Source: Candidatus Yanofskybacteria bacterium
Lineage (GTDB): Bacteria; Patescibacteriota; Minisyncoccia; 2-02-FULL-40-12; GWA2-44-9
DNA length: 64,000 nucleotides
Direction of reading: 5' to 3'
Assembly (NCBI GenBank): GCA_003514055.1
Contig: DOSG01000001.1
Span: 24,571-88,570, forward strand
Part shown: in pieces, positions 8,027 to 60,618 of the stretch
How the letters are laid out: every line of letters begins with the position of its first letter
Position numbering within the stretch: the stretch's first letter is position 1
Notes under the pieces: generated by a model
Database searches by the model: none
Seen by the model: the letters and a program-made list of their open reading frames with translations, nothing else
Told to the model about the DNA's origin: nothing
Made by a program: the position numbers and the translations under genes

Positions 8027-10450
8027 ATGGCGAGTTTGACCGGAGTCAAGCTGGCAATATGCCAGATGCCAGTCGTGGTCGGAAGGCCTGACCTAAACGT
8101 TCGGTATATGCGTCAGGAGATTTCTGACGCGAAAGATAAGGGCGTAGACATTATTATCTTCCCGGAACTTTCGGTAACTGGGTATATTATCGGCGATATG
8201 TTTGAGCGTGAAGAATTCATTCTCGATGCATACAAGTCGTGTGATGCTATGTTGCGTGAAGTAACGAAAGACGGCATTACGGCGATTGTCGGTGTGCCCG
8301 TCTATGACAACGGTCTTCGTGGCGAAGACGGACGTCGAAGATTATACAATGCAGCTGTTGTATATAGCGACGGTAAGTATATTGGTAAGGCCATCAAAAC
8401 GTTGCAGCCAAACTATCGAATGTTCGACGATGATCGTCATTTCTATTCAGAGCGAAAATTGGCACAGGAGAACGGCCTAGATCTGAATATGATCAATAAC
8501 GTATTTGCCATAAAGTTAAGAGACAGTCGGATAATACGTCCCGGTGTAATGCTTTGCGAAGATGGATGGCCTGATGACTATTATATTGATCCGAGCGAGG
8601 CGCTCATGAATAATGGTGCCGAATTAATTATCAATATATCGGCGTCACCATGGGGTTGGCAGAAGAATCGTAAACGCCACAGCGTCGTCAAGGAGCTCTT
8701 GACCAAACGTAAGGTGTCGATGGTATATGTAAATAACACCGGCTTGCAGAACAATGGCAAGAATTTGATCGTGTTTGATGGCAGCTCAACAGTATACAAC
8801 GCGAACGGAGAAGTTGTTTACGAAGTTGCTCCCTATGCCGTTGGTAATCACTATTTCGAATTTACGGAAAAACTTCCCGTTGTTATTCAAAACAAACAAG
8901 ATGATTCGCGGGAGCTATATCTGGCGGTACATAACGCCATCAAGGAATTCTGTTCATCATTCAAGAAGATTATCATTGGCGTCAGTGGTGGTATTGATTC
9001 AGCTGTCGCCGCTGCGGCATATGTCGATGCGCTGGGCAAAGATAAGGTCCTCGGAGTCTTTATGCCTTTTAGTAAATATAGTTCTACCGAGAGCGAAGTA
9101 AGGGCTCGTGCTATAGCTGAAAGTCTCGGTATTGAATTCCGAGTCGTGAGCATCGATGCAATCGTTGATTCGATTGCGGGATTACTTTCTACACAAGAGG
9201 GAACTCTTGAGTATGAGAATATACAGGCTCGGGCTCGTATGGAAGTCCTAGCAGCCATTGCTCAGAGAGAGGGTGGCGTGTTCGTCTGCAATACAAACAA
9301 AGTCGAAGCCGCATTTGGCTACGGCACGATGTATGGCGATATCGCTGGTGCTCTCGCGTTGTTGGCCGATATGGTGAAGCGCGAAGTCTATCAGTTGGGT
9401 AATTACTACAATGAGCAGGTTTTTGGTAGGCAAGTAATTCCTGCCGATTGTTTCAACATTGCGCCCACGGCCGAGTTGGGCCTGAATCAGAAAGACCCCT
9501 TCGATTATGGGAATCTGCTTCGCCGAGGTTATCACGACGAGATGGTTAGGGCATTCACTGAATTCAGACTTGGTCCGGAATGGTTCATTGAAGCCTATAT
9601 GTCGAAGCAACTTGAGATAGAGTTGAAGCTTGAAGCTGGGACGATCGATCGATTGTTTCCTTCAGCTGGCAAGTTCGTCGCTGATCTCGAAAAACACTGG
9701 GCTTTGTATCGACGAGCATTCTTCAAGACAAATCAAATGCCGCCGATTCTCATCGTGAGCAAGCGCGCATTCGGTTATGATCTGCGAAGGTCAATGGTGA
9801 CGCCCCACTTTACTGGAAGGTATCGACGATTAAAGGCATTCGTATTGCCTAAAGAGCCCAGACGAATTGCGATCTATGGTGGAAGTTTCAATCCGCCCGG
9901 ATTGAATCATCTCCAGGTCGTACAAAGTGCTCTTAAATCATTCGACACAGTTATCGTTGTGCCGTGTGGTCCCAGAGGGGATAAGGATTCTATCAATACG
10001 GTAACCTTCGTGGACCGCAAGAATATGATCGAGATGGCTTTTGGCGATGTACCTGGCGTAGAGATTGATTGGCGAGATTTGAAGTCGGGCGACTTCACTC
10101 CAACCTATCAATTGCAGGAGATCTACAAAGCAGAATTCCCCGACGACGAAATATGGTTCGTGGTCGGGAGTGATATAGTTTTGAAGGGTTCAGATGGCCT
10201 ATCGCTTATTCAGCGAATGTGGCGTCAGGGTAAGAGAATCTGGCAAGAGTTAAACTGGGCAGTGATTGCTCGAAGCAACGTGGCTATTCCAGCCGACAAC
10301 ATGCCGCCGAATTTTCTACTGCTTGCGGCGAGTGACATCTTTGGATCATCGAGTACCATTAGACAGATGGTAGCTGATGGCAAAGATATCGGTGATTTCG
10401 TCGATGACGAAGTTGGTGAATATATTGCCAAGAAGGGATTGTACAGATAG
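8027..10450 (+). CDS. nadE: Tri-domain fusion: glutamine-dependent NAD+ synthetase (nitrilase-type glutaminase + NadE PP-loop) fused to NaMN adenylyltransferase (NadD)
   Basis: N-terminal CN-hydrolase domain; SGGIDSAV PP-loop; C-terminal YGGSFNPPGLNHL HxGH nucleotidyltransferase motif and ...SSTIRQ. Confidence 0.8.
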   Translation: MASLTGVKLAICQMPVVVGRPDLNVRYMRQEISDAKDKGVDIIIFPELSVTGYIIGDMFEREEFILDAYKSCDAMLREVTKDGITAIVGVPVYDNGLRGEDGRRRLYNAAVVYSDGKYIGKAIKTLQPNYRMFDDDRHFYSERKLAQENGLDLNMINNVFAIKLRDSRIIRPGVMLCEDGWPDDYYIDPSEALMNNGAELIINISASPWGWQKNRKRHSVVKELLTKRKVSMVYVNNTGLQNNGKNLIVFDGSSTVYNANGEVVYEVAPYAVGNHYFEFTEKLPVVIQNKQDDSRELYLAVHNAIKEFCSSFKKIIIGVSGGIDSAVAAAAYVDALGKDKVLGVFMPFSKYSSTESEVRARAIAESLGIEFRVVSIDAIVDSIAGLLSTQEGTLEYENIQARARMEVLAAIAQREGGVFVCNTNKVEAAFGYGTMYGDIAGALALLADMVKREVYQLGNYYNEQVFGRQVIPADCFNIAPTAELGLNQKDPFDYGNLLRRGYHDEMVRAFTEFRLGPEWFIEAYMSKQLEIELKLEAGTIDRLFPSAGKFVADLEKHWALYRRAFFKTNQMPPILIVSKRAFGYDLRRSMVTPHFTGRYRRLKAFVLPKEPRRIAIYGGSFNPPGLNHLQVVQSALKSFDTVIVVPCGPRGDKDSINTVTFVDRKNMIEMAFGDVPGVEIDWRDLKSGDFTPTYQLQEIYKAEFPDDEIWFVVGSDIVLKGSDGLSLIQRMWRQGKRIWQELNWAVIARSNVAIPADNMPPNFLLLAASDIFGSSSTIRQMVADGKDIGDFVDDEVGEYIAKKGLYR

Positions 10451-19027: not shown

Positions 19028-20059
19028 ATGAATTTTAAGGTTATCAATCAAAAATTAAACGACTTACTAACCTCGCTTGGTCTAACTAGAAAACAGGGAT
19101 TTTATGCTGCCCTGTCTGTAGGAGTAATTATTCTAGCCCTTATTTCCTATGTGGCCTTATTTACTGCACCCCAAAATAACACTGGCTTAGAAATATTTTC
19201 GGTTGAGGCTGATCTATCAAGCAAAGGTAATGTCGCTCAAAGTTTGGAATACAAAGGCTTTGTTAAGAGTTCTTTGGGGTTCCAGATAGCTTTTGCTTTG
19301 CGTGGGAATAAAGAAATTCGATCTGGTGCATATCAGATTTCCAAATCTATGAATGTTTGGGAGATTGCCAAGATATTAAACGGAGAGCCGACTTTGAAAT
19401 GGGTTACGATTCCTGAAGGGCTACGAAAAGAAGAGATAGCCGATATTCTCGCAATGACTCTTAAGTGGAGCGATGAGGATAAGCTTAAATGGATTACCAC
19501 GTATACGGCAATGGAGTATGATTATATGGAAGGAGTCTACTTCCCCGATACTTATCTCATCCCCATCAATGAGACACCGCTTCAGGTAGCAAATCGTCTC
19601 CGAGCTCACTTTGAAGAAAAGTTTGCACCATTTGCTCAAGAAGCTTTGAAACAAAATATTAAATGGGATACTGCCCTTAAACTTGCTTCGATTGTTCAAA
19701 GAGAAGCCGCGGGCAAAGACGACATGTCATTAATTGCTGGGGTACTTTGGAATCGCTTACTCAAAGGTATGAAATTGGAAGTGGATGCGACGGTACAGTA
19801 TGCTCGTGGAAAAACTGCTCAGGGTTGGTGGACACCGATTAAACCAGCAGATAAACAGATCCAATCAGCATATAATACCTATTTGAATAAAGGATTACCG
19901 CCTCATCCGATTTCAAATCCTGGCATAGACGCTATTAACGCTACGCTGAATTCAACTGAGACAAAGTGTCTATATTATCTCCACGAAGAGTCGGGAATAA
20001 TCCACTGTGCGGAGACATACGAAGAGCATTTGAGTAATATAGAAAAATATTTAAAATGA
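19028..20059 (+). CDS. mltG: endolytic murein transglycosylase MltG (YceG family)
   Basis: N-terminal TM; YceG-like domain (GVYFPDTYLIP...). Confidence 0.75.
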   Translation: MNFKVINQKLNDLLTSLGLTRKQGFYAALSVGVIILALISYVALFTAPQNNTGLEIFSVEADLSSKGNVAQSLEYKGFVKSSLGFQIAFALRGNKEIRSGAYQISKSMNVWEIAKILNGEPTLKWVTIPEGLRKEEIADILAMTLKWSDEDKLKWITTYTAMEYDYMEGVYFPDTYLIPINETPLQVANRLRAHFEEKFAPFAQEALKQNIKWDTALKLASIVQREAAGKDDMSLIAGVLWNRLLKGMKLEVDATVQYARGKTAQGWWTPIKPADKQIQSAYNTYLNKGLPPHPISNPGIDAINATLNSTETKCLYYLHEESGIIHCAETYEEHLSNIEKYLK

Positions 20060-20433: not shown

Positions 20434-21735
20434 TTACTCTATCGTTAGCACCTTGTCTTTAAGGACTATCCGGTTCTTAAGATGAGAGAGTATTTGACGC
20501 TTCTCATCTGTTGCTCCGGATTTTAATACGTGTTTGGCGTAATTTTTTATATCAAAATCTTGTAGTTTAAATTCTTGCCTCTCAATGCCTAGCATTGCCT
20601 GAAAGTTTTGATGCCGTTCGATATCTTCTTTGAGATGATTTCGGAGTCCCAACTCATCCAGACTCATCGTATCAATCAGACCAATGAGTTGAAGAATAAG
20701 ATCTTCTTCGCGAAGATAGGTGATGGGGCAATTAATATCTTTCGTCCGAGTACAGCCGTAGTAGATATAAGTGGCTATGCCACCGCCAGCGAGTTTCTTA
20801 TGTTTTTCTTGGGCCGTAACTCCCGAGCTACAATGTCCGCATCGCATGAGTCTGGTAAATGCGAAGTCCTTAGATAGGTAGCGGAACTCACTTTCCCGCT
20901 TCATTGCCTCGCGGGTGCGCAAGTACAACTCTTTACTGATAAGGGGTTCGTGCTGACCTTTGTACCAAGTACCGCTACCGGCAGGGTATTGGAATTCACC
21001 CATATAAAGAGAAGTACTCAATATTTTTTGAACACTAGAAACCCAGATCGGTTTGTTATGTATTGTCTGGAAATTTATTTCTCGCAACCATCGGTATACT
21101 TTTCGACCACTCCAACCGTCATTGCCAACCTTTTCGAACATCTGTGTGATAATCGGAGCACGCTCAGGATCGGGTATTATGTAACCCTTACGGTCCGTTC
21201 TCATTTCATTAAGATATCCAGTCGGAGCAGGACAAGGCCAGAGGCCCATCTCACACTTAGCCCGCAAGCCCCTTTTTACATTTACACCCTTCTGATCGTT
21301 TTCTAGTTTGCCTTGTGCCCCGAGAATCATGAATAGGAACTTCTCACTCGGGCTATTTGTGAATCTCTGGCCGTATGTCCGAATTTCTATTAGAAGCTTT
21401 TGATCCAGTAAGTCGACTATTGAACCCAAGTCTCCAGCGTTACGGCTGAGGCGGTCTGGTGCCCAAGAAAGGATGGCATTGAATTTATCGTTCTTAATAT
21501 CCTGAATCAGTCTATTAAACTCAGGCCGTTGTCCGGCCGCTTTGGCAGAATGGGATTCTTGTCTTACATCTGTCACTTGCAAGCCATCCTTTTGAGCCAG
21601 TTGGAGCATCTCCTTAATCTGGCTATCTATACTCATCGTCTGTCGCTCGTCCGATTCACTCGACTTGCGGGCATATAGACAGTACCGCAAAGACTCCCCA
21701 TAAGTCCCTAAATTGCCTTGTTGTGTGTTTTCCAT
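20434..21735 (-). CDS. large serine recombinase (resolvase/invertase catalytic domain + recombinase domain + zinc ribbon)
   Basis: YARKSSESD catalytic Ser region, ...DRLSRN, C-terminal CGHCSS...YYGCTR. Confidence 0.85.
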   Translation of the reverse strand: MENTQQGNLGTYGESLRYCLYARKSSESDERQTMSIDSQIKEMLQLAQKDGLQVTDVRQESHSAKAAGQRPEFNRLIQDIKNDKFNAILSWAPDRLSRNAGDLGSIVDLLDQKLLIEIRTYGQRFTNSPSEKFLFMILGAQGKLENDQKGVNVKRGLRAKCEMGLWPCPAPTGYLNEMRTDRKGYIIPDPERAPIITQMFEKVGNDGWSGRKVYRWLREINFQTIHNKPIWVSSVQKILSTSLYMGEFQYPAGSGTWYKGQHEPLISKELYLRTREAMKRESEFRYLSKDFAFTRLMRCGHCSSGVTAQEKHKKLAGGGIATYIYYGCTRTKDINCPITYLREEDLILQLIGLIDTMSLDELGLRNHLKEDIERHQNFQAMLGIERQEFKLQDFDIKNYAKHVLKSGATDEKRQILSHLKNRIVLKDKVLTIE

Positions 21736-24935: not shown

Positions 24936-25450
24936 GACGGTACATAGGTTGTTATTTTATATGTCCGTTTAGGTATCAGTTTAGGTCTTCAAAAAGAGAA
25001 GACTCCCAATTGAATAGAGCGAGATCGACCAGATCGCTCAATACAATTTAGGGAGTCTGCTTAAGAATTATCCTCATTATATATCCACCCAAAAGATGAG
25101 CAATACCTAACTGTGGATAAGACCACATGTGTAAATACTGTCAATAACGTAAATTGGGCCACTGTTGGTAAGGCCCCTTCGCAACCCCTCAATACTAAGG
25201 TAGAAGGGAGGGTGGTCATTTAGCTCTCAAACTGCTAAAATACCCTTAACAATTCAGACCTAACCCCTAAGATTCGTCTCAGGATATGGTCAAAAATCCC
25301 GCTAGAGAATAAAAGACTCCTCGTCCGGAGTCGCTCTAGCGGGTCACGTCTCGAAAGGGATGTGGGTGAAGCCGAAAGGTTTCATCGCAACGGGCGGGGA
25401 GTCTTTTGCGTCCAGACTCTCTGTCTTGCACTTAAAACCCGCTAGAGTGC

Positions 25451-26011
25451 ATGCATAACAATATTCAACCCAAGGGCGACGCTCTTGGGTTTCTTGATTC
25501 TTATCCATCCGATAAGGAGACAATTATTTTACCTTCTGGGAGTTCAGTCGAGGTAAAGAAATATATCCTCAAGTTTAAAGCATGGCAGGGCGATAAGCCC
25601 GTTTTTGATTTTGGTCGAAAGCCGATTATTGATTTTGATGGCGAAGGTTGTTTTGCCGAGCTCGCAATATTACGAATGTTTTTGAAAAATGGCTGGCAGG
25701 GTGTTTGGGTTGAAGCATATGGCGGTACTCATTTTTTAAATTCTATGCCCACCAGCTGGTCACTTAAACCAGAACATATTTCTATACCTGAAGAAAAAGA
25801 AAAACTACTTAAGAGAATCTGGATGGCCGGTAAAACGAAAGCTTGTTTCGATGTAGTTGTTTGGCAAGATGACAAAATCCTATTTTGCGAAGCCAAACGA
25901 TCCAAAAAGGACCGTCTTACCAAAGCACAGGAAAAGTTTATCCAAGGCGTAATAACTTGCGGCATTCCATTGTCCGCACTCATTATTATCGAATGGGATT
26001 TCCAGCCATAA
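25451..26011 (+). CDS. VRR-NUC-like PD-(D/E)xK nuclease
   Basis: FDVVVWQDDKILFCEAKRSKKDRLTKAQ (D...E-x-K...Q). Confidence 0.55.
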   Translation: MHNNIQPKGDALGFLDSYPSDKETIILPSGSSVEVKKYILKFKAWQGDKPVFDFGRKPIIDFDGEGCFAELAILRMFLKNGWQGVWVEAYGGTHFLNSMPTSWSLKPEHISIPEEKEKLLKRIWMAGKTKACFDVVVWQDDKILFCEAKRSKKDRLTKAQEKFIQGVITCGIPLSALIIIEWDFQP

Positions 26012-26053: not shown

Positions 26054-27970
26054 ATGAAGAAATCTCTCATAGAAGAACTACCTAAAATTGTTGCTGATGG
26101 CAGAAAAGAGGTTGAGGAGATTCTCGAACGGCTTTCAAGTACCAGTAAACTCGGGCTTCAAACAAATGAGCTTGTTCTGCCCGCTAAAGATACAGCTGGA
26201 CTTTTCCAAGGACAAGTAACCGAAGTAAATGAAAAAGAATGGATGAACCGACTTATCTACGGAGATAATCTTTTAGCTATGCAAGCATTGCTTGCAGGCG
26301 ATCCATCCAGTGGACTTCCTAGTATGCGAGGCAAGATTGATTTGATTTATATAGATCCACCATTTGATTCAAAGGCTGACTATCGCACGAAAGTGACTCT
26401 TCCTGGTGTTGATTTAGAGCAGAAGCCGACGGTTATCGAGCAATTTGCATATGCTGACACTTGGAAAGACGGCACAGTGTCATACTTAAAGATGCTCTAT
26501 CCTCGACTTGTATTAATGCGGGAACTTTTGTCTGATAAGGGAACAATCTATGTGCACATTGACTGGCATGTTGGGTGTTATGTTAGGGCATTATTAGATG
26601 ATGTCTTCGGGAAAAGTAATCTTATAAACGAGATTATTTGGAATAAAGGTTTCAGAGGCACTGAATCCAAGAAAATTTTTCAACATTCCCACGATTCGAT
26701 CTTCTTTTATGGGAAATCTCAAGATTATATATGGAATCAGCAAGGGCAACCATACAAAGATGAAAGTTTGGGAAGATATAATAAAATCGATGAGGAGGGG
26801 AAGAGATACGCAGAAATAAAAAGAGTTAGAACTGACGGGTCTATATACTATGGAAAAACTTACCCAAATGAGGATGGTAAAAAGATTAACGACGTTATCT
26901 CTCATGTCCCAACTATGGCATCTACCAATTCTGAGCGCATAGGTTACGATACCCAGAAACCCGAAGCTTTGTTGGAAATATTAATCAAATCTTCATCGAA
27001 TGAAGGCGATGTGGTTGCCGACTTTTTTGGTGGATCTGGCACTACTGCCGCAGCAGCAGAAAAACTTAATCGTAATTGGATTATTTCTGATCTTGGCAAG
27101 CCAGCGGCAATGATTATGAGGAAACGGTTAATTGACCAGAACTCAAAGCCATTTTTATACCAAGCCATCGGAGACTACCAAAAGGAGGTTTTCTCAAGCT
27201 CGAAAATGTATCGAAGAGTTGGGGATTTATCCCATGTTGTTCTCCAGTTATTTGGTGCAATACCTTTTGCTGACGTAGAGCAACACCAAAGGAATCTCGG
27301 CTACATTAAGGAGAGTAAAACATTAATTTTAGTAGATTCTCCAAACAAGATGACGGGTCTCGCAACCTTAAAACGTGCACAAGAATTACGCAATTCGTTT
27401 ATGGGTGGTTGGCAAAAAGTGGTAGTTCTGGGTTGGAATTTCACTTACGATATTACAGAAGCAATCCAATCACTTAATGACGATAAATTAGAAGTTTTGG
27501 TCATCCCTCCAGATCTATTAGATAAATTGAAAACAAAAGCTAGTTATAAAAATCTTGTAGATAGTGGAAAGGTGCGTTTTTCCTCACTACAATACTTGTC
27601 TCTCAAGCCAATCAGAAAAGAAAATACTACCAAAGAAAACGAAGAGCAGATTATAGTTCCATTGGATACCTACGTGCTTTTATCGCCAGATAATGTACCA
27701 CTTGATGACAAAGATAGAGAGAAGCTATCGGGAATCATTGCCAAAGATCCACTAGCTCTCATCGAGTATTGGAGCGTAGATCCTGATTACGATGGCGAAA
27801 CTTTTCGTAGTAGATGGCAAGATTATCGTGGCAATATAGAGAATGATAGAGATGAGCTTCATGTTATCCGAGAAGCCAGAATTATTGTGCCTAAAAAATC
27901 AAAACGAACCATAGCGGTTAAAGCCGTCGATGTTTTTGGTTTTGAAAGTGTTGTTATAAAAGAAATTTAG
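26054..27970 (+). CDS. mod: Type III restriction-modification Mod (N6-adenine/N4-cytosine methyltransferase, beta class)
   Basis: [10 protein letters not shown] (motif IV) precedes [10 protein letters not shown] (motif I); 638 aa; directly upstream of res. Confidence 0.85.
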
Positions 27971-27972
27971 CT

Positions 27973-30885
27973 ATGCCAACACCACTTAACATTGGGACAC
28001 GCGATGTCCCTCTCCGCCTTGCCAAAGTACTGACGGAAAAAGTTAATGAAGCATGGGCGAGCGGAGAAATATTATCCAAAGTTACACCAGTAACAAGAGA
28101 GTTACTGACTTTTTGGTTTAGTGAGTCTCATGTTGAAACTAGAAATATAAATTTTCACCAAGGGCAACGGCAAGCCATACTAAATACGATCTATCTGCAC
28201 GAGATTGTGGGTGTTAAAGCAGTCAAAGATATCTATGAAAATATAGAGTTTGAGCTTCTCTCGGAGCTCGATATGACTGAATTCAAGAAGCCAAAGTATG
28301 AAATTCCAAAATATGGAATAAAAATGGCCACGGGTACTGGGAAAACGTTAGTTATGAACGCTCTTTTGATTTGGCAATATTTGAATGCAAAATATGAAGA
28401 ACAGCCATCGGGGAGATATTCTAAAAATTTCTTGCTGGTCGCACCTGGGCTTATTGTGTATGAGCGACTTCTTGACGCATACCTTGGTAAAGAAGACGAG
28501 AACGGGGAGCGAGCATTTGAGACTTCTGATATATACAACTTTCGAGACTTATTCGCACCACTAAGTTTCCGTGAAGATATTTTTGGATTCATCCAAAATA
28601 ATGTGGCTCGCAAGCAAGAAATTGGTAGCAAGGTTACTGGGGCCGGTATCATTGCAATTGCCAACTGGCATCTGTTTATGGAAGAAGAGGAGCATGAAGA
28701 AAGTAGCACGCCACTAGATGATGTAAGTGGCATCATAAAGGATGTTTTTCCAATAAGACCTGGTGTGTCTGGAGGTAACTCTATAGATTCTTTGGATGCT
28801 CAGTATTTAAGCGGTAGAGAAATTGAATATCTTGCAAGTTTGCCGGATCTGGTTGCGTTTAATGATGAAGCTCATCACATCCACGAAAATAAATCATATG
28901 GAGAGGTAAAGGAAGTTGAATGGCAGAAGAGTCTTAATTCTATAGCAAAAAATAAGGGCTCCAAATTTATCCAAGTGGATTTTTCTGCTACCCCGTATGA
29001 TGTAACTGGTAGCGGACAAAATCGAGTTAAGCATTATTTCCCACATATAATTGTGGATTTTGACTTGAAAACAGCGATACGTTCCGGTCTCGTTAAGACG
29101 ATAGCTATTGATAAGAGAAAAGAGCTCACGGATTTGCCGTTGGAATTTAACGCCATAAGAGAAAACGGAGAAGTTATTGGATTGTCTGACGGTCAGAAAA
29201 TGATGTTGCGAGCAGGACTAAGTAAGTTGCGTATTCTAGAAAAGAGCTTTGTGGATTTTACGGCTGATAAGAATGGGGTTTCTAATAAACACCCCAAGAT
29301 GCTTGTTATGAGTGAGGATACGTCAGTTACTCCATTCATTGAGGATTTTTTGAGAAGTGAAGGTCTTAGTGAGGAAGATGTGATGCGAGTTGATTCTAAT
29401 AGAAAAGGCGAAGTATCAGAAGAGGAATGGTTTGAAATTAAACAACGCTTATTTAATATAGATAAACACTCGAGACCTAAAGTTATTGTCTCGGTCCTTA
29501 TGTTGCGTGAGGGATTTGATGTAAATAATATTTGCGTAATTGTACCTCTACGTTCTTCATCCGCACCTATTTTGCTTGAACAAACTATTGGTAGAGGTTT
29601 GCGTATTATGTGGCGTGAACCAGAGTTTGAGGAAATAAAATCAGAGAACAGGAGAAGACTTCTTGTCGAGAAAAAAGAACCAAATAGCTATATTGACCTA
29701 CTCACCATTATTGAGCATCCAGCCTTTATCCAATTTTATGACGAATTACTCAAGGAAGGTCTTCTTGGTGAGTTGGAGCATGATCCCAAAGGAGGACAAG
29801 TCCTCGGCGATATTATCAGAGTTGGCCTTAAATCAAACTACAAAGACTACGATTTGTCTTGGCCGGTGATTATTAAGGATGCCGACGAAGAACTAGTTGA
29901 GTCTGAAATTGATATAAATAAATTAGAAAAGTTTACTGCCTACGAAACAAAAGACTTAAAGAAGTTTTTCAGTAAAGATGGGGAGCAATTTATTTCCGAG
30001 GAGATGACCGTCAAAACTCGTTTTGGTGAGTATGTGGTTGATGCCAATCTTTTTAAATCACAGAGCTATAATGAATATCTTCAGAAAATAGTCGATTGCG
30101 TAGTGAATAGAATGGCAAGAATAAGCCAGAGAAAAAATAAGGTGTTTCCGGCGATGCAGATTAATAACGTCCTTATCGCCAAAACAATAGACAGGTATAT
30201 AAGAGAAAGACTTTTCGGTGAGCCATTTGACCCATTCGTTGATAATAATTGGAAAATACTGCTTCTAAAAAATGGTCTCATCACTAACCATATCGTAAAA
30301 GAAATTGGCAAAGCAATTTTTGAGATGCAACAGTCTGTCCAGCCAACTGAGGCAAAAGTGAACCATAATTATTTCTCAGGAATTAGTGAGTTGAGAATGC
30401 GCGAAAACTTTTCGCTACCAATTGTAAAAACTATCTATGAGCGTCTGCCATATCCATCAAATCGTGGCGGTTTTGAGAAAGATTTTATGGAGTATATCGA
30501 TGGAGATACTGCCGTTGAAAGCATTATGAAGGTCAATGAATACTATCACTCATTTGCAACAGTTCTATATATACGAACTGATGGTCTCATGGCAACGTAT
30601 TCTCCGGATTTTATAGTTAAAACTAAGGACAAGCTATACGTGATTGAAACTAAGGCCGAGAAAGATATTAATGATGAAAATGTTAAACAAAAACAGCTGG
30701 CTACTCTTGATTGGATAAAACGTATTAATTCTCTAGACGCAAAAGATAGGTCAGAACGCGAATGGGCGTACATTCTTTTGGGGGAAAATCACTTCTATAG
30801 CCTAAAGCAAAATAGTGCCTCCATCGAAGAGATCTGTGAGCTTGCTAGGGTTAAGGAGAATAAGGTTAGAGGAACCTTATTATAG
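27973..30885 (+). CDS. res: Type III restriction enzyme Res (SF2 helicase + PD-(D/E)xK endonuclease)
   Basis: ATGTGKT motif I, DEAHH motif II, C-terminal PDFIV...VIETKAEKD. Confidence 0.85.
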   Translation: MPTPLNIGTRDVPLRLAKVLTEKVNEAWASGEILSKVTPVTRELLTFWFSESHVETRNINFHQGQRQAILNTIYLHEIVGVKAVKDIYENIEFELLSELDMTEFKKPKYEIPKYGIKMATGTGKTLVMNALLIWQYLNAKYEEQPSGRYSKNFLLVAPGLIVYERLLDAYLGKEDENGERAFETSDIYNFRDLFAPLSFREDIFGFIQNNVARKQEIGSKVTGAGIIAIANWHLFMEEEEHEESSTPLDDVSGIIKDVFPIRPGVSGGNSIDSLDAQYLSGREIEYLASLPDLVAFNDEAHHIHENKSYGEVKEVEWQKSLNSIAKNKGSKFIQVDFSATPYDVTGSGQNRVKHYFPHIIVDFDLKTAIRSGLVKTIAIDKRKELTDLPLEFNAIRENGEVIGLSDGQKMMLRAGLSKLRILEKSFVDFTADKNGVSNKHPKMLVMSEDTSVTPFIEDFLRSEGLSEEDVMRVDSNRKGEVSEEEWFEIKQRLFNIDKHSRPKVIVSVLMLREGFDVNNICVIVPLRSSSAPILLEQTIGRGLRIMWREPEFEEIKSENRRRLLVEKKEPNSYIDLLTIIEHPAFIQFYDELLKEGLLGELEHDPKGGQVLGDIIRVGLKSNYKDYDLSWPVIIKDADEELVESEIDINKLEKFTAYETKDLKKFFSKDGEQFISEEMTVKTRFGEYVVDANLFKSQSYNEYLQKIVDCVVNRMARISQRKNKVFPAMQINNVLIAKTIDRYIRERLFGEPFDPFVDNNWKILLLKNGLITNHIVKEIGKAIFEMQQSVQPTEAKVNHNYFSGISELRMRENFSLPIVKTIYERLPYPSNRGGFEKDFMEYIDGDTAVESIMKVNEYYHSFATVLYIRTDGLMATYSPDFIVKTKDKLYVIETKAEKDINDENVKQKQLATLDWIKRINSLDAKDRSEREWAYILLGENHFYSLKQNSASIEEICELARVKENKVRGTLL

Positions 30886-30888
30886 CTT

Positions 30889-31431
30889 TTACTTTCGAAG
30901 ATTTAGGTTGATTAATCTAAATCTCATTGCATTTTCACTCACTTGATATTTCTCAGCTAGCTTTTCTAGTTCAACCTCAGTAAAACCATCTTTGGCAATA
31001 TTTATAAAATCTTTAGATAGTAAGCTTTGAGGCATAAGTAGTGCTGCCGCAAACATGTTTGCATGTCTTTCGGTGGGTGTCCTCATTATTTCTTTTTTAT
31101 TGTCTCTATAATCAACAAAAGCATCTTTCCTTGGATGCAAAAAATAGTGCCCCAACTCATGGGCAATAGTGAACCTCTGTCTTACTGGAGCTTCATTACT
31201 ATTTACTCCAATCAAAGCGTGTCCATTTTTTCTGATGAGTAGTCCCGAGAAATCTTTACTTGGTGCACGACTTATCTTTATTCCGTGTCGCGTAGCGATA
31301 TCTTCTACGGGAATTGGTAATGTTTTACTTTCTAAATCGCTCAGTATCTTTTCAACTTCTGACTCAATTTTTTCTAAAATCATAATATTATTTTCAATCT
31401 TTAAAAAGTATTGCTGCCCATTTGGCTGCAT
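30889..31431 (-). CDS. ImmA/IrrE-family zinc metallopeptidase
   Basis: TIAHELGHYFLH (HExxH). Confidence 0.8.
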   Translation of the reverse strand: MQPNGQQYFLKIENNIMILEKIESEVEKILSDLESKTLPIPVEDIATRHGIKISRAPSKDFSGLLIRKNGHALIGVNSNEAPVRQRFTIAHELGHYFLHPRKDAFVDYRDNKKEIMRTPTERHANMFAAALLMPQSLLSKDFINIAKDGFTEVELEKLAEKYQVSENAMRFRLINLNLRK

Positions 31432-31741
31432 TTTTGTCCTCCTGAGCTACTTTATGGAGGTCGACCTTAGTTAATGCAAAACCATCCGGTATAGCAGGAA
31501 AGAAATCTTTTATATCGCAATGAAATAATGTCGCAAGTTTCCATAAAGATACAGCCGATATGTTATTTCTTCCTGTTTCAATATGAGTCACCGCTTCGCG
31601 GGAGATGCCAAGCTTCTTAGCTATTTGTGATGCACTCAAATTCAACTTCTTGCGCATCTCGCGTACTCTCTTGGCAATATCTGCCTTGATTTCAGCGTCT
31701 GTGGCGTCCTTAGGATTAATTATATCTTTTTTCTTTTGCAT
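31394..31741 (-). CDS. XRE-family HTH transcriptional regulator
   Basis: LSASQIAKKLGISREAVTHIETGRNNISAVSLWKLA; overlaps ImmA start. Confidence 0.8.
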   Translation of the reverse strand: MQKKKDIINPKDATDAEIKADIAKRVREMRKKLNLSASQIAKKLGISREAVTHIETGRNNISAVSLWKLATLFHCDIKDFFPAIPDGFALTKVDLHKVAQEDKNAAKWAAILFKD

Positions 31742-31938
31742 CTTTAATAGGCTGATGTTGGTAACTTGTTATAGATTATACCGATTGTTATTAATTGTAC
31801 CCATTATGTTATCTCAGGTAACATCTGGTACATCTAATTCCCTTGATATGGTATCAACTCTAGGTGTAGAATTCAAGTATACAAACTAATCAGCCCCGAT
31901 GCCAAGCCGCAATGCGTGCAAAGCACAGGACTAAAGCC

Positions 31939-32211
31939 ATGAGCGAAGACAAAAAACACGACGGGGGCGACAATAAGGACACAATCATTATTGTAAACGC
32001 CAGGGAGAAGGTCTGGAATAAGAAGGAGATATCGTACGAGGAGGTCATCGTACTAGCCTTCGGTTCGTATTCCAATGACGAGAATGTTGTTTATACTGTG
32101 ACATTCTCAAAGGGCGAAAATCCTCATCACGAAGGGTCGATGGTAAGGGGGGACGTTGTTAAAGTTAAGAAAGGTATGATATTCAATGTCACACAGACTA
32201 ATAAATCGTAA
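31939..32211 (+). CDS. small beta-grasp (ubiquitin/ThiS-like, multiubiquitin-type) protein, candidate Ubl
   Basis: TIIIVNAREK...ISYEEVIVLAF...GDVVKVKKGMIFNVTQT pattern; overlaps start of E1 gene; start at 2nd ATG with AGGA RBS. Confidence 0.45.
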   Translation: MSEDKKHDGGDNKDTIIIVNAREKVWNKKEISYEEVIVLAFGSYSNDENVVYTVTFSKGENPHHEGSMVRGDVVKVKKGMIFNVTQTNKS

Positions 32212-33367
32212 TTCTGACCTATTAAGGCTCAGAAGTGAAGGGTATGATATCGAGGTAAAGAACGGGCATCTTTTGGCTCATCATATTCCATATGTCAATT
32301 CGAAAAAGGAGATCGCTTTCGGGGTTCTTGTCACCCCGCTTGGCGATCTAGCTGGGGATAAAACGACCAAGCCACAAGATCACGTGATCCATTTTCATGG
32401 CGAACATCCTTGTGATAAAGAAGGACTGGTTATAAAAGGGATCCAACATTCGAGCGAAAAGAAAACTCTGGTAGAAGGAGTCGAAGTTGACCACTCTTTC
32501 TCTAATAAGCCGACCGATGGCTATCCAGATTACTATGAAAAAATAGCCACCTACGCAAAAATAATTTCTGCACCCGCTGAATCAATTGATCACTCCGTTA
32601 CGGCCAAGGTATTTAGGCCGGTGAGGACAGATAATGATCCGGATGAGGTTTTTAATTATTTGGATTCAAATTCAAGTAGGGCAGAAATTCAGAACATCAC
32701 TTCTAAACTTCAGAACCTTAAGATAGCCATCATCGGTTTAGGGGGTACGGGTTCATATGTATTGGATTTTGTCTCTAAGACGCCAGTTAAGGAAATCCAT
32801 ATTTTTGATCAAGACGGCTTCCTCTCTCACAATGCTTTTCGCGCTCCCGGAGCGCCTGCGATCGAAACGTTAGAATTGCAACCAAAGAAAGTGGCTTATC
32901 TGCATGGCGTTTACTCAAAGATGCATAAATATATTACGCCTCATGAGTACCACCTTACCGCCGAAGTTTCTGAAGAATTATCGGGAATGGATTTTGTTTT
33001 TATATGCGTAGACAAGGGGGAAAGTAAAAAGTTAATCGTCGATAAGTTAGAAGAAAAGAAGATTCCCTTCATAGACGTTGGGGTTGGTATTGAAGCTGTC
33101 GGTGGCAAGTTAACTGGAAGTGTTCGGACTACCGCAGTTACGGAAGGCAAAAACGACCATATTGATAAAAGAATTTCTTTTGCCGATAATGGAAGTGAAG
33201 ACTATCATAATAATATCCAAATAGCAGAGTTGAACGCACTTAATGCCGCTTTTGCTGTTATAAAATGGAAAAAGATTTTTGGTGTCTATCATGATTTTGG
33301 GAATGAGCACGATTCCGTCTATAGCATCAATGTTAACCAGCTAATCAACAATGACGTTATCTCATAA
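32186..33367 (+). CDS. E1-like (ThiF/MoeB) adenylyltransferase with ~175-aa N-terminal extension (candidate E2-like domain; Cap2/BubCD-like)
   Basis: IAIIGLGGTGSYV Rossmann, IFDQDGFLSHNAFR, FVFICVDKGES; N-terminal HFHGEHPC candidate catalytic-Cys motif. Confidence 0.65.
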   Translation: MSHRLINRNSDLLRLRSEGYDIEVKNGHLLAHHIPYVNSKKEIAFGVLVTPLGDLAGDKTTKPQDHVIHFHGEHPCDKEGLVIKGIQHSSEKKTLVEGVEVDHSFSNKPTDGYPDYYEKIATYAKIISAPAESIDHSVTAKVFRPVRTDNDPDEVFNYLDSNSSRAEIQNITSKLQNLKIAIIGLGGTGSYVLDFVSKTPVKEIHIFDQDGFLSHNAFRAPGAPAIETLELQPKKVAYLHGVYSKMHKYITPHEYHLTAEVSEELSGMDFVFICVDKGESKKLIVDKLEEKKIPFIDVGVGIEAVGGKLTGSVRTTAVTEGKNDHIDKRISFADNGSEDYHNNIQIAELNALNAAFAVIKWKKIFGVYHDFGNEHDSVYSINVNQLINNDVIS

Positions 33368-33731
33368 ATTTGTACAAAATATACCGGAACATTTAGATGA
33401 TGGGGTAATTTATGTTTCTATAGAGTACGCCACGGCCATCCACAAATGTTGTTGTGGATGTGGCAATGAAGTTGTCACCCCTTTTTCCCCAACTGATTGG
33501 GAATTGATATTTAACGGTGAGGCAATCTCCCTATATCCATCGATTGGGAATTGGAATTTTAAATGCCAGTCGCACTATTGGATCACCAATGACGCTGTTG
33601 AGTGGGCACCTAAGTGGTCTAAACGCCAGATTGAAGAAGGTAATAAAAGAGACCAGAAAGTTAAGGGTGCATATTATAGAAAAGATAAAGGACGTAAATC
33701 ATTACTTGATTTTCTGAAGATTAGATTCTAG
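33351..33731 (+). CDS. small Cys-rich (CCCGCG...C..H) protein, operon partner of E1
   Basis: 126 aa, overlaps E1 stop; HKCCCGCGNE and FKCQSHYW potential metal ligands. Confidence 0.45.
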   Translation: MTLSHKFVQNIPEHLDDGVIYVSIEYATAIHKCCCGCGNEVVTPFSPTDWELIFNGEAISLYPSIGNWNFKCQSHYWITNDAVEWAPKWSKRQIEEGNKRDQKVKGAYYRKDKGRKSLLDFLKIRF

Positions 33732-33987
33732 TTTAGATCTAGTTTTTTGCCAGCACTCAATAGGACGTTCTTAAGTCCTTTTTATACTGTCGCATTTGTC
33801 TCATTTACCCCGACCAAGGAGCTTCGTTTAGTCGCTGGCTAAAGCTCTCAAAAACCTTTAGAATACCCCTAACAGCCTCGTACTAGACATACGAGTCCAG
33901 CAAGCGAACGTAGGTGAGCGCAGTGCCCAGCGCCAGTAGGCGGTAGGTATTAAATTTAGATAGGTTATTTCACTCGAGACATAAATT

Positions 33988-34542
33988 ATGAGCTTAGAAA
34001 ATCCCAATTCTGATAGAGAGGAGCTAATTAGGGCAGTTTTAGAATATGGAAATCGATTAATTGAATCGTCTATGGAGATGATATCCGTGTTGCCGTTCGA
34101 GATTAAAGGAGAAAAATTTACTTTGGTATATGGAATATTCCCAAGAGAGTCTGGTAATGTGTGGGTAAGAGTTGGGTTGTTTAATGATTATCAAGGCGCT
34201 AAATTAGAAAATGGAAGCAGTTTTAACGTAGGAGAGATTTCAATGACACGGTTAATGTTTAATCTTGAATCCAGTAGCGTGCATGGAGAATTCGGTACAG
34301 ATGAGAAATATGAAGGTAGGGGATTTGGCAGCGCTCTCTTGTACTTAAGAGACGGTATCATTAAAGACATTATAAAAAAATATAAAGATAAGTTTTCATC
34401 AAGTTTATTAAGAAGTGAAATCGCAGATAATTCTCGGGCACAAAGCGAGAATAGGCAACATGATGGGCTAACAACTTTTCTCGCCAAAAAAATGGGATAT
34501 ACAAAGGAAGGCGAAAAACTAGTTAAAGATTATATTATTTAG
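33988..34542 (+). CDS. hypothetical protein
   Basis: 184-aa ORF preceded by conserved noncoding element X2. Confidence 0.45.
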   Translation: MSLENPNSDREELIRAVLEYGNRLIESSMEMISVLPFEIKGEKFTLVYGIFPRESGNVWVRVGLFNDYQGAKLENGSSFNVGEISMTRLMFNLESSSVHGEFGTDEKYEGRGFGSALLYLRDGIIKDIIKKYKDKFSSSLLRSEIADNSRAQSENRQHDGLTTFLAKKMGYTKEGEKLVKDYII

Positions 34543-34576: not shown

Positions 34577-35194
34577 ATGGCAGCACCGATAACCCACATA
34601 GTTTTAGCCAATAAAGTTTTTTCTAAAGAATTTCCACTTTTTTCTAGGGAAAAATTTTTTGTTGGGACTAGTTTCCCGGATATAAGGTATCTTGGAGTAA
34701 TTGAAAGAAGTAAGACGCATTTTACAAGCCCCCTGTTGGCAGATATTAAGAAAGAGAACGATGCCCAGGCAGGTATGATGTTTCATTCATTCGTAGATGG
34801 AGTCAGGGAAAAAGTTTTGAAGGAAGCTGGGATATACAAGATGATTCCGAAGAATGGGATTAGTATCCAAACACTCAAGCTGTTGGAGGATGAGGTCTTG
34901 TACAATAAAATAGAAGACTGGAAAGTCATTGCTTCTTATTTTGATTCCATACTGGCAGAGGAGCTAGCCTATCCAATAGGCGAAGATTCTATAAAAAGAT
35001 GGCACAATGCACTGCAACATTATTTCGTGGAAGGCCCTAATGCGGGGAGTAGAAAAGTTCTATTTACGGAAATGAATTTTAGCGACGAGAATACTTTTGA
35101 GACAGAAGAAATTTTAGCAGAGATGAGGCAAAATGATAAAATCATAGATATGATAAATGATTTCTATAATAAGTTTGGAGAAAAGATAAACTAG
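34577..35194 (+). CDS. hypothetical protein
   Basis: 205-aa ORF. Confidence 0.45.
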   Translation: MAAPITHIVLANKVFSKEFPLFSREKFFVGTSFPDIRYLGVIERSKTHFTSPLLADIKKENDAQAGMMFHSFVDGVREKVLKEAGIYKMIPKNGISIQTLKLLEDEVLYNKIEDWKVIASYFDSILAEELAYPIGEDSIKRWHNALQHYFVEGPNAGSRKVLFTEMNFSDENTFETEEILAEMRQNDKIIDMINDFYNKFGEKIN

Positions 35195-59226: not shown

Positions 59227-60618
59227 ATGCCAGACATATTTCTATACGATACCTATTCCAGGGAAAAGAAAGAGTTCAAATCACTTGAGCCAATGAAGGT
59301 GGCTATGTATTCTTGTGGGCCAACTGTCTACGATTACCCCCATATCGGCAACCTAAGGGCTTATGTCTTTTCGGATCTACTAAGGCGGACCCTCAAATAT
59401 AATGGATTTGAAGTCAATCAAGTTATGAATATTACCGACGTGGGGCATCTTACGTCTGATGGAGACGATGGAGAAGATAAAATTGAACAACAGGCTGAAA
59501 AAACCGGTAAGACTGCCCAAGAGATTTCTCAATTTTTCACCAATGTTTTTATTCGTGATTTGGCAATGCTTAATATCGTATCGCCAGCTACTTTGGTTAA
59601 GGCCACTTCGACTATCGACGATCAAATTAAGCTAATAGAAAAGCTTGAGATTCTCGGCTATACCTATAAGACCAGCGATGGCATTTATTACGATACTTCG
59701 AAATTCAAAGACTATGGGCATATGGCCAATCTAAACAAGGATGCCATCAAGCCCGGTGCTAGAGTTGAGCTGAATCAAGAGAAGAGAAATCAGACCGACT
59801 TCGCTCTCTGGAAATTTTCTCCTCAAAACATTAAGAGACAGATGGAGTGGGAGAGTCCATGGGGAGTCGGTTTTCCCGGTTGGCATATCGAGTGTTCGGC
59901 CATGGCCATGAAATTCTTGGGAGATACTATTGATATTCATACTGGCGGTATCGATCACATCAATATCCATCATACTAACGAGATTGCTCAGTCTGAAGCG
60001 GCTACGGGTAAGCAGTTCGTCAGATATTGGATGCACAACGCCTTTCTGTTGGTTGAGGGTAAGAAAATGTCTAAAAGCTTGGGCACTGTTTTTACACTAG
60101 AAGATTTATTTGGCAGAGGATACGACCCACTTGTTTTTAGATATCTAATGCTTACGGCTCATTATCGTTCTGAGATGAATTTTACCTGGGAATCGCTATC
60201 TAGCGCTAAGATTGCGCTTGATGGGCTACGTAAAATCATAGCTGGCCTCGATGATGGTGGTATTTCTGATGAAGGCTATGTAGCTAAATTTAGAGAGATC
60301 GTGAATAATGATGTCGATGCTCCTAGGGGGTTAGCTCTAGCTTGGGAAGTAGCTAAAAGCGATCTATCGTCGGCTACAAAGAAGGCTACGCTGTTAGATT
60401 TTGATAAGGTGCTAGGCCTGAAGTTGTCCGAGGTTTCGGTCGTCGACGATACACCGGAGGTTATTCCAGATGAAGTTGTTAGGCTGGCCGAAGAGAGGGA
60501 AGAGATGAGAAAGTCCAAAAATTGGTCTGCCGCTGATGCCGCTAGACAGAAGATCTTGGATTTAGGGTATACTGTAGATGACGCTCCTGACGGTTATAAA
60601 ATAAAAAAACAGGTATAA
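59227..60618 (+). CDS. cysS: cysteinyl-tRNA synthetase
   Basis: CGPTVYDYPHIGN (HIGH), KMSKSLG (KMSKS), Zn ligands. Confidence 0.95.
   Translation: MPDIFLYDTYSREKKEFKSLEPMKVAMYSCGPTVYDYPHIGNLRAYVFSDLLRRTLKYNGFEVNQVMNITDVGHLTSDGDDGEDKIEQQAEKTGKTAQEISQFFTNVFIRDLAMLNIVSPATLVKATSTIDDQIKLIEKLEILGYTYKTSDGIYYDTSKFKDYGHMANLNKDAIKPGARVELNQEKRNQTDFALWKFSPQNIKRQMEWESPWGVGFPGWHIECSAMAMKFLGDTIDIHTGGIDHINIHHTNEIAQSEAATGKQFVRYWMHNAFLLVEGKKMSKSLGTVFTLEDLFGRGYDPLVFRYLMLTAHYRSEMNFTWESLSSAKIALDGLRKIIAGLDDGGISDEGYVAKFREIVNNDVDAPRGLALAWEVAKSDLSSATKKATLLDFDKVLGLKLSEVSVVDDTPEVIPDEVVRLAEEREEMRKSKNWSAADAARQKILDLGYTVDDAPDGYKIKKQV

Follow-up and report, generated by a model that had tools for sequence, protein, structure and literature searches.

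The 64,000-nucleotide stretch of Candidatus Yanofskybacteria DNA analysed here (referred to as the window) very probably carries an intact Type II Bub operon, which is controlled by a CapH/CapP-like regulator pair and lies within a mobile defence island of this Candidate Phyla Radiation (CPR) genome. Bub operons (bacterial ubiquitination-like operons, formerly 6E or DUF6527 operons) were described by the Corbett laboratory in two preprints (bioRxiv 10.1101/2024.11.21.623953, Ye, Gong, Chambers and Corbett; bioRxiv 10.1101/2024.11.21.623966, Gong et al.; hereafter the Bub preprints). According to these, a Type II operon encodes a free ubiquitin-like protein (Ubl; BubA), a fusion of an E2-like and an E1-like enzyme (BubBD) and BubE; a JAB peptidase is typically absent. 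A sequence-only reading of the same DNA had pointed to a relation with Bub operons, and this is borne out by the fusion protein, which over its full length is 42% identical to BubBD of Escherichia coli ZDHYS365 (E = 5e-103). The suggestion that the composition might be a distinct variant did not hold, as the gene set and gene order are exactly those of the published Type II layout. The locus is an ordinary member of an already characterised family and no new type of system.

The three genes follow each other on the + strand with overlaps of 26 and 17 nt, as confirmed by an open reading frame (ORF) check of the window. The gene calls of the Joint Genome Institute (JGI) on the source contig (metagenome 3300025095, Ga0208977_1000013, 280 kb) comprise the same three genes. 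The features of the operon are:

31939–32211, + strand: bubA, beta-grasp Ubl of 90 aa (Pfam Multi_ubiq; JGI start call; match to PDB entry 9cd2)
32186–32211, + strand: dual-coding overlap of 26 nt, shared by bubA (3' end) and bubBD (5' end) (same register in related loci)
32186–33367, + strand: bubBD, E2-like/E1 fusion of 393 aa (Pfam DUF6791 and ThiF)
32186–32680, + strand: E2-like domain of bubBD, residues 1 to about 165 (DUF6791; Ser106 codon at 32501–32503; invariant His66; Lys108)
32681–33367, + strand: E1 adenylation domain of bubBD, residues about 166–393 (ThiF fold; GLGGTGS at residues 184–190; Arg219 codon at 32840–32842; Tyr340 codon at 33203–33205)
33351–33731, + strand: bubE, DUF6527 protein of 126 aa (Cys33, Cys35, Cys37 and Cys72; Ser64 codon at 33540–33542; His75 codon at 33573–33575)
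33762–33789, + strand: terminator-like hairpin with T-run just 3' of the bubE stop codon (terminator scan)

The hairpin is the probable end of the operon. An alternative in-frame ATG at position 31912 would extend BubA to 99 aa; the JGI call corresponds to the 90-aa start. Both overlaps and the 126-aa Cys-rich third protein had been described in the sequence-only reading, and the coordinates and motifs agree: HFHGEHPC was found at residues 69–76 and NAFR at residues 216–219 of the bubBD product, and CCCGCG at residues 33–38 and CQSH at residues 72–75 of the bubE product.

Homologues of the fusion protein number more than 6,700 at E ≤ 1e-5, and clustering at 50% gave 515 representative clusters at E ≤ 1e-30. 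Judged by these relatives and by the Pfam matches given below, the three ORFs are genuine and widespread genes and not chance ORFs. Related loci were collected from one genome for each GTDB species; of at least 545 confirmed loci, 80 were kept, and two further loci came from look-ups of the exact protein (82 in total). Counts on the BubA tail and on the gene overlap refer to 79 non-redundant loci. Residue conservation was assessed in 100 close BubBD homologues, in 148 diverse BubBD homologues that include the 50%-cluster representatives, and in 83 BubE sequences. The reference proteins of E. coli ZDHYS365 were machine-read from supplementary Table S2 of the preprint, which introduced errors (a Val at the invariant Tyr342, an offset of 1–2 residues and one missing Cys in BubE); they served for pairwise identities only, and conservation was judged on database homologues. 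A search with the operon DNA against complete E. coli genomes, aimed at the ZDHYS365 reference locus, gave no match. A bubE homologue was found directly 3' of bubBD in 82 of 82 loci and a bubA homologue directly 5' in all 80 loci with upstream sequence. The hosts belong to Acidobacteriota, Bacteroidota, Cyanobacteria, Bacillota, Chloroflexota, Planctomycetota, Nitrospirota, Proteobacteria, Patescibacteria and others, and two of the assemblies are labelled archaeal.

BubBD matched Pfam DUF6791 (PF20590; E = 1.4e-55, residues 10–161) and ThiF (E = 1e-12, residues 172–301), as would be expected from the sequence-only reading, which had proposed a ThiF/E1 core with GLGGTGS and NxxR (here NAFR) behind an E2-like N-terminal extension. 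In a sequence search against solved structures, the E1 part matched BubCD of Citrobacter (9ea4, 9ea5 and 9eav; E = 1.5e-5), the crystal structures of which were released in September 2025. The AlphaFold2 model of the whole protein had a mean predicted local distance difference test score (pLDDT) of 90.1 and a predicted template modelling score (pTM) of 0.84. With this model, the top eight PDB matches in Foldseek were all Citrobacter BubCD (E = 1.9e-14 to 3.8e-13), followed by UBA5, ThiF, MoeB and Atg7. When residues 1–166 were modelled alone (pLDDT 82), Foldseek gave no significant match, with E2 enzymes dominating the list; the closest structural match of the E2 domain is BubB.

The catalytic residues were assigned by comparison with E. 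coli BubBD. The numbering is the same in both proteins for Ser106 and Arg219, and Tyr340 corresponds to Tyr342 of E. coli. The substitutions R219A (adenylation), Y342F (crossover-loop nucleophile) and S106A (E2 nucleophile) in E. coli BubBD each abolish the formation of conjugates in vitro, and mutation of K108 does not (Bub preprints). Ser106, Arg219 and Tyr340 were invariant in the 100 close homologues. In the diverse set, Ser106 was present in 147, Arg219 in 148, Tyr340 in 147 and His66 in 148 of the 148 sequences, and the sole exception at Tyr340 was the machine-read E. coli row of Table S2. Based on this conservation, Ser106 is assigned as the E2 nucleophile and the crossover-loop Tyr340 as the E1 nucleophile, with no catalytic Cys predicted. 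The protein has the two features of the Type II fusion. Its N-terminal domain is E2/UBC-like, and the catalytic Cys is replaced there by an invariant Ser, with a conserved Lys and His alongside; in its E1 adenylation domain, an Arg and the crossover Tyr are conserved and a catalytic Cys domain is absent.

The sequence-only reading had proposed to identify a catalytic Cys in the N-terminal domain, in which it had noted the HFHGEHPC motif. Cys76 was rejected as nucleophile, as it is present in only 101 of the 148 homologues (68%, the others having His, Tyr or Ser), the nucleophile position is that of Ser106 and the S106A result is published. His103 was likewise dismissed as the accompanying His, being found in 58 of 148 sequences against the invariant His66. 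In a single one of the 148 sequences, position 106 holds Cys and not Ser; this could be a natural thioester-using variant inside an oxyester family.

These data bear on the idea that the fusion protein is a Cap2-like E2–E1 ligase of the kind found in Type II CBASS, Pycsar and MBL systems, which would conjugate a signalling enzyme and not a free Ubl. The domain order, E2 followed by E1, is the same, and the PADLOC profiles for E1–E2 (Cap2) proteins match the adenylation domain (E = 1e-7). Those matches are, however, confined to the Rossmann core (residues about 170–300), and Cap2 uses catalytic cysteines, takes the C-terminus of a CD-NTase as substrate and has the JAB peptidase Cap3 as its partner, whereas the E2 nucleophile position here holds Ser. 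Neither a CD-NTase nor a JAB peptidase was found among the genes called within about 6 kb, as the sequence-only reading had noted, and a cyclase, an effector and Cap3 were likewise not among them. A Cap2-like ligase is therefore extremely unlikely. What the Type II Bub operon of the window does share with Type II CBASS is the E2-then-E1 fusion itself and the association with regulators of the CapH/CapP type.

BubE matched Pfam DUF6527 (PF20137; E = 2.4e-25), a family that is named "BubE" in the precomputed Pfam matches of the source contig, and shares 55% identity with BubE of E. coli and 34% with that of Citrobacter (E = 3e-7). In the Citrobacter protein, C57, C59, C61 and C99 form a zinc site and S92 and H102 a dyad, the mutation of which abolishes peptidase activity (Bub preprints). 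These residues align with Cys33, Cys35, Cys37 and Cys72 and with Ser64 and His75 of the window protein. Cys35, Cys37 and Ser64 were found in 83 of 83 sequences and Cys33, Cys72 and His75 in 82; Cys34 of the CCCGCG run is not conserved (44 of 83). The alignment identifies CCCGCG as a CxCxC zinc knuckle plus an additional Cys, and BubE as a predicted zinc-binding Ser/His peptidase. The Cys-rich partner is not an E3-like factor. The C-terminal third of the protein is basic with hydrophobic residues at its end, in agreement with the hydrophobic N- or C-terminal BubE extensions described in the Bub preprints. No sequence relative of BubE was found among solved structures, which agrees with the authors' statement that a BubE structure does not exist.

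BubA matched Pfam Multi_ubiq (PF14452; E = 4.9e-16) and residues 148–222, beta-grasp domain 3, of PDB entry 9cd2 ("ZDHYS365 multi-ubiquitin domain protein"; E = 5.2e-14), so that the 90-aa candidate Ubl with a beta-grasp fold proposed in the sequence-only reading has stood. We classify it as a one-domain beta-grasp protein on the strength of these matches. The lengths of BubA in the 79 loci fit one, two and three beta-grasp domains in 42, 17 and 20 loci, respectively, and the one-domain form (Ubl_1) is a common architecture in the Bub preprints (bioRxiv 10.1101/2024.11.21.623953; 10.1101/2024.11.21.623966).

BubA has Ser as its last residue in all 79 loci, with Thr at position −4 in 77. The tail has the consensus F-N-V-T-x-T-[D/N]-[K/R/Q]-S, most commonly F-N-V-T-x-T-D-K-S, and ends with ...VTQTNKS in the window and ...VTQTDKS in E. 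coli. A C-terminus other than Gly is the norm in the Type II family. For conjugation of E. coli BubA with its native ...DKS end in vitro, BubBD and ATP suffice (Corbett-laboratory Bub preprints), so that there is no indication of a processing step. Thus, the earlier remark that the Ubl does not end in Gly-Gly is correct, and the need for processing attached to it is not supported. No mention of the C-terminal Ser was found in the text of either preprint, the figures of which may show it.

In 79 of 79 loci, bubBD begins at the same point of bubA, 26 nt from its end (ATG in 77, TTG in two). The start codon sits within the Asn-Val codons of the BubA tail, and many positions of the overlap are 90–100% conserved; the consensus over the 79 loci from many phyla is TTCAATGTCACAGCAACTGATAAATCGTAG. 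Through this conserved out-of-frame overlap, the same nucleotides encode the BubA tail and the N-terminus of BubBD, an arrangement suggestive of translational coupling between bubA and bubBD.

With these features in hand, a plain ThiF/MoeB sulfur-carrier system, in which a small beta-grasp carrier is adenylated for thiocarboxylate formation, can be weighed. The E1 domain is of the ThiF/MoeB/UBA5 fold class, and ThiF and MoeB were matched in Foldseek with E-values of about 1e-10. The best structure and sequence matches are nevertheless BubCD and BubBD, the adenylating enzyme carries a fused E2-fold domain that matches BubB best, BubA ends with the invariant Ser (...NKS) and not with Gly-Gly, a dedicated peptidase, BubE, is always linked, and no thiamine or molybdopterin biosynthesis genes were called nearby. 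The sequence-only reading had reserved such a system for the case that neither a UBC/E2 fold nor a beta-grasp fold would be found. Both folds were matched (Pfam, PDB and Foldseek), and the sulfur-carrier alternative is rejected as having next to no probability. A decayed, non-functional Bub remnant has nothing specific in its favour beyond the facts that CPR genomes are reduced and that acquired islands can decay. The three ORFs are full length with all catalytic and structural residues intact, the 26-nt overlap is kept, and the identical BubBD protein is on record in 78 blocks of the public collection of assemblies, all of which makes decay highly improbable.

The intact Type II operon can be compared with the systems already described. 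It shares with that of E. coli ZDHYS365 the three genes and their order, Ser106, Arg219 and the crossover Tyr, the zinc site and Ser/His dyad of BubE, the absence of a JAB gene, and the association with a helix-turn-helix (HTH) and M78 peptidase regulator pair, as in 31% of Bub operons; it differs in its CPR host and in the short peptidase without a GAF domain. The Type I operon of Citrobacter provides the best structural matches of the E1 and E2 domains, a homologous BubE and the same Tyr/Ser oxyester chemistry. In Type I, however, the Ubl is joined to the E2 and the E1 carries a JAB peptidase, and cleavage by JAB is needed to expose the C-terminal Gly; the operon of the window has an E2–E1 fusion and no JAB, and its BubA has the Ser end as translated. 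The Bil (bacterial ISG15-like) systems also conjugate a free Ubl by E1 and E2 activities in a defence context, but they have separate E1 (IAD-AAD-CYS), E2 and JAB proteins, use thioester chemistry and have a phage tail as demonstrated target. The locus is of use because it shows a Type II Bub operon in a clean and minimal form: the Ubl has one domain, the regulator is short and ImmA-like, and a restriction-modification (R-M) system is the neighbour. For the chemistry of the family, the invariant C-terminal Ser of BubA, the universal 26-nt overlap and the non-conserved Cys of GEHPC are the useful observations.

The closest named relatives of BubBD (69–70% identity) come from a Candidatus Methanoperedens metagenome-assembled genome (MAG) and from a 47-kb contig labelled "uncultured archaeon", on which the Bub operon adjoins a TrmB-family regulator and a DUF1699 gene. 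Going by the MAG labels, the "bacterial" ubiquitination-like operon seems to occur in archaea as well. The terms "archae", "Methano" and "Patescibacteria" appear nowhere in Table S1 of the preprint, the isolate-based Bub catalogue. The locus thus adds a CPR host, from a group missing from that catalogue, with near relatives in archaeal MAGs. A more speculative proposal, which we regard as rather unlikely, is that Type II systems use a special C-terminal chemistry, based on the invariant T-[D/N]-[K/R/Q]-Ser-COOH tail that is locked by the overlap, and that the locus was in addition subject to recent cross-domain transfer (archaeal-MAG relatives, CPR episymbiont as host). If the terminal Ser or the tail did act in catalysis or recognition, Type II would be mechanistically unlike every Gly-terminated Ubl system, and the tail and overlap could serve the geometry of the Tyr/Ser oxyester relay, the specificity of BubE or an obligatory coupling that fixes the BubA:BubBD stoichiometry. 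If true, the locus would also be evidence of recent cross-domain transfer of a ubiquitin-like system.

Upstream of the operon, and divergent from bubA, lies the regulator pair:

30889–31431, − strand: CapP-like/ImmA-like zinc metallopeptidase of 180 aa, M78 family with HELGH (Pfam Peptidase_M78, E = 9.1e-26)
31394–31741, − strand: CapH-like XRE-family HTH repressor of 115 aa (Pfam HTH_3, E = 8.7e-14; PADLOC capH, E = 3e-6)
31742–31938, no strand assigned: divergent regulatory region of 197 nt (by its position between the capH-like gene and bubA)
31766–31803, no strand assigned: tandem 19-nt direct repeats (repeat search)
31806–31824, no strand assigned: imperfect 9+9 palindrome ATGTTATCT-C-AGGTAACAT (repeat search)
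31843–31872, + strand: sigma-70-like promoter match TTGATA-18-TAGAAT (promoter scan)

The two genes overlap by 38 nt. The peptidase matched the PADLOC capP profile with E = 3.5e-36, at positions 3–154 of 242, and in the PDB it matched IrrE (8slm, E = 1.6e-8) and CapP (7t5t, E = 7.9e-6), the latter in the peptidase part (residues 56–172 of 291) only; the HTH protein gave PDB matches to XRE/C-protein HTH regulators. Canonical CapP has about 290 aa in three domains. The C-terminal one is a GAF domain, which the literature puts forward as a possible allosteric site for a ligand in the activation by single-stranded DNA (ssDNA). As the matches to the capP profile and to 7t5t were confined to the peptidase part, the pair is classed as CapH/CapP-like, of the short ImmA type. 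It has in common with CapH/CapP an XRE HTH repressor and an HExxH M78 metallopeptidase, divergent from the operon that they control, and differs in that the peptidase consists of the peptidase domain only, like ImmA. An M78 peptidase gene was found near 36 of the 82 loci, nearly always upstream of bubA, and about 11 of these 36 proteins are equally short. This frequency agrees with the published association of 31% of Bub operons with CapH and CapP (Bub preprints). The regulatory function of the 197-nt region is proposed from its position only.

The following course of events can be envisaged for the operon. At rest, the HTH repressor would occupy the repeat and palindrome region of the intergenic space and keep the operon off. 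Upon DNA damage or phage infection, the M78 metallopeptidase would become active and cleave the repressor, by analogy to CapH/CapP and ImmR/ImmA; this sensing step is uncertain because the peptidase has no GAF domain. The BubBD dimer would then bind the beta-grasp of BubA, and the carboxylate of the C-terminal Ser would be adenylated with ATP via Arg219 and the Rossmann site. Attack on the adenylate by Tyr340, on the flexible crossover loop, would yield a BubA~Tyr oxyester, from which BubA would move to Ser106 of the fused E2, probably that of the opposite protomer, giving a BubA~Ser oxyester, and finally to a lysine of a target protein. BubE, acting as a zinc-stabilised Ser64/His75 peptidase, would undo the conjugation and limit the pathway. 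The steps from adenylation to lysine transfer were shown biochemically for E. coli ZDHYS365 BubBD, and deconjugation for Citrobacter BubE (Bub preprints); every residue involved is conserved here, from which we infer the same conjugation and deconjugation chemistry for the window proteins.

Several points weigh against the overall assignment or parts of it. All chemistry for the window proteins is carried over from homologues. The regulator peptidase, with 180 aa, is without the GAF domain of canonical CapP, and sensing of ssDNA may not apply to it. The promoter matches in the intergenic region correspond to the expectation from shuffled sequences and are no better than chance. Finally, no Bub operon has so far been shown to protect against phage, as the authors repeat in 2026, and the defence role of Bub rests on genomic context.

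The last point leads to the possibility that the Bub chemistry is the same but that its role is not antiviral, and lies in a general DNA-damage or stress response or in service to the mobile element that carries it. The Bub authors could not find an operon that protected E. coli from phage, and in 2026 they described protection as undemonstrated and more global stress responses as a possible function of Bub. ImmR/ImmA-type regulators also occur in prophages and integrative and conjugative elements, and a large serine recombinase is encoded about 10 kb upstream of the Bub operon. As regards context, on the other hand, the operon has a Type III R-M system next to it, along with another DNA methyltransferase, and the regulators with which Bub is often associated control CBASS and other defence systems as well. 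We consider a non-antiviral role a serious possibility, though not a probable one. Targets and phage defence are the main question for the Bub family, on which the locus is of no help owing to its uncultivated host.

The Type II Bub operon and its regulators are flanked by the following genes:

20434–21735, − strand: large serine recombinase with Resolvase, Recombinase and zinc-ribbon domains (domain search)
26054–27970: Type III mod (defence search and annotation)
27973–30885: Type III res (defence search and annotation)
33988–34542, + strand: ORF of 184 aa, 3' of bubE (no Pfam or PADLOC match)
34577–35194, + strand: ORF of 205 aa, 3' of bubE (no Pfam or PADLOC match)

A second N6/N4 methyltransferase is encoded upstream of the operon. 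The GC content is lower across about 24–37 kb of the window, beside the gene for the serine recombinase, a stretch that holds the two DNA methyltransferases, res, the regulator pair and the Bub operon and is probably an integrated mobile defence island. The sequence-only reading had likewise placed the operon in a defence island, and the Type III R-M system and the XRE/M78 pair are indeed found where it had put them. The first ORFs downstream begin 256 nt after bubE. The 184-aa and 205-aa proteins, a GNAT and a 2'-5' RNA ligase-like protein were rejected as members of the operon, being present in none of 80 other Bub loci, and Type III res was rejected as a conserved Bub partner from the same comparison of 80 other loci.

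A full-length LOOT RNA (Rfam RF03000) was detected at 25257–25383 on the + strand, with 77.5 bits against a gathering threshold of 46.4 (E = 7e-13). It lies just 5' of an unannotated ORF of 186 aa (25451–26011) and the Type III mod gene; a literature search on this RNA gave no useful result. At 8027–10450 (+ strand), a protein of 807 aa appears to combine a glutamine-dependent NAD+ synthase (nitrilase and NadE) with a C-terminal nicotinate-nucleotide adenylyltransferase (NadD), and would hold two consecutive steps of NAD biosynthesis on one polypeptide. The cysteinyl-tRNA synthetase encoded at 59227–60618 is 100% identical to the protein of Candidatus Yanofskybacteria GW2011_GWF1_44_227. The window further contains genes for FtsX (264–1184) and YceG/MltG (19028–20059).

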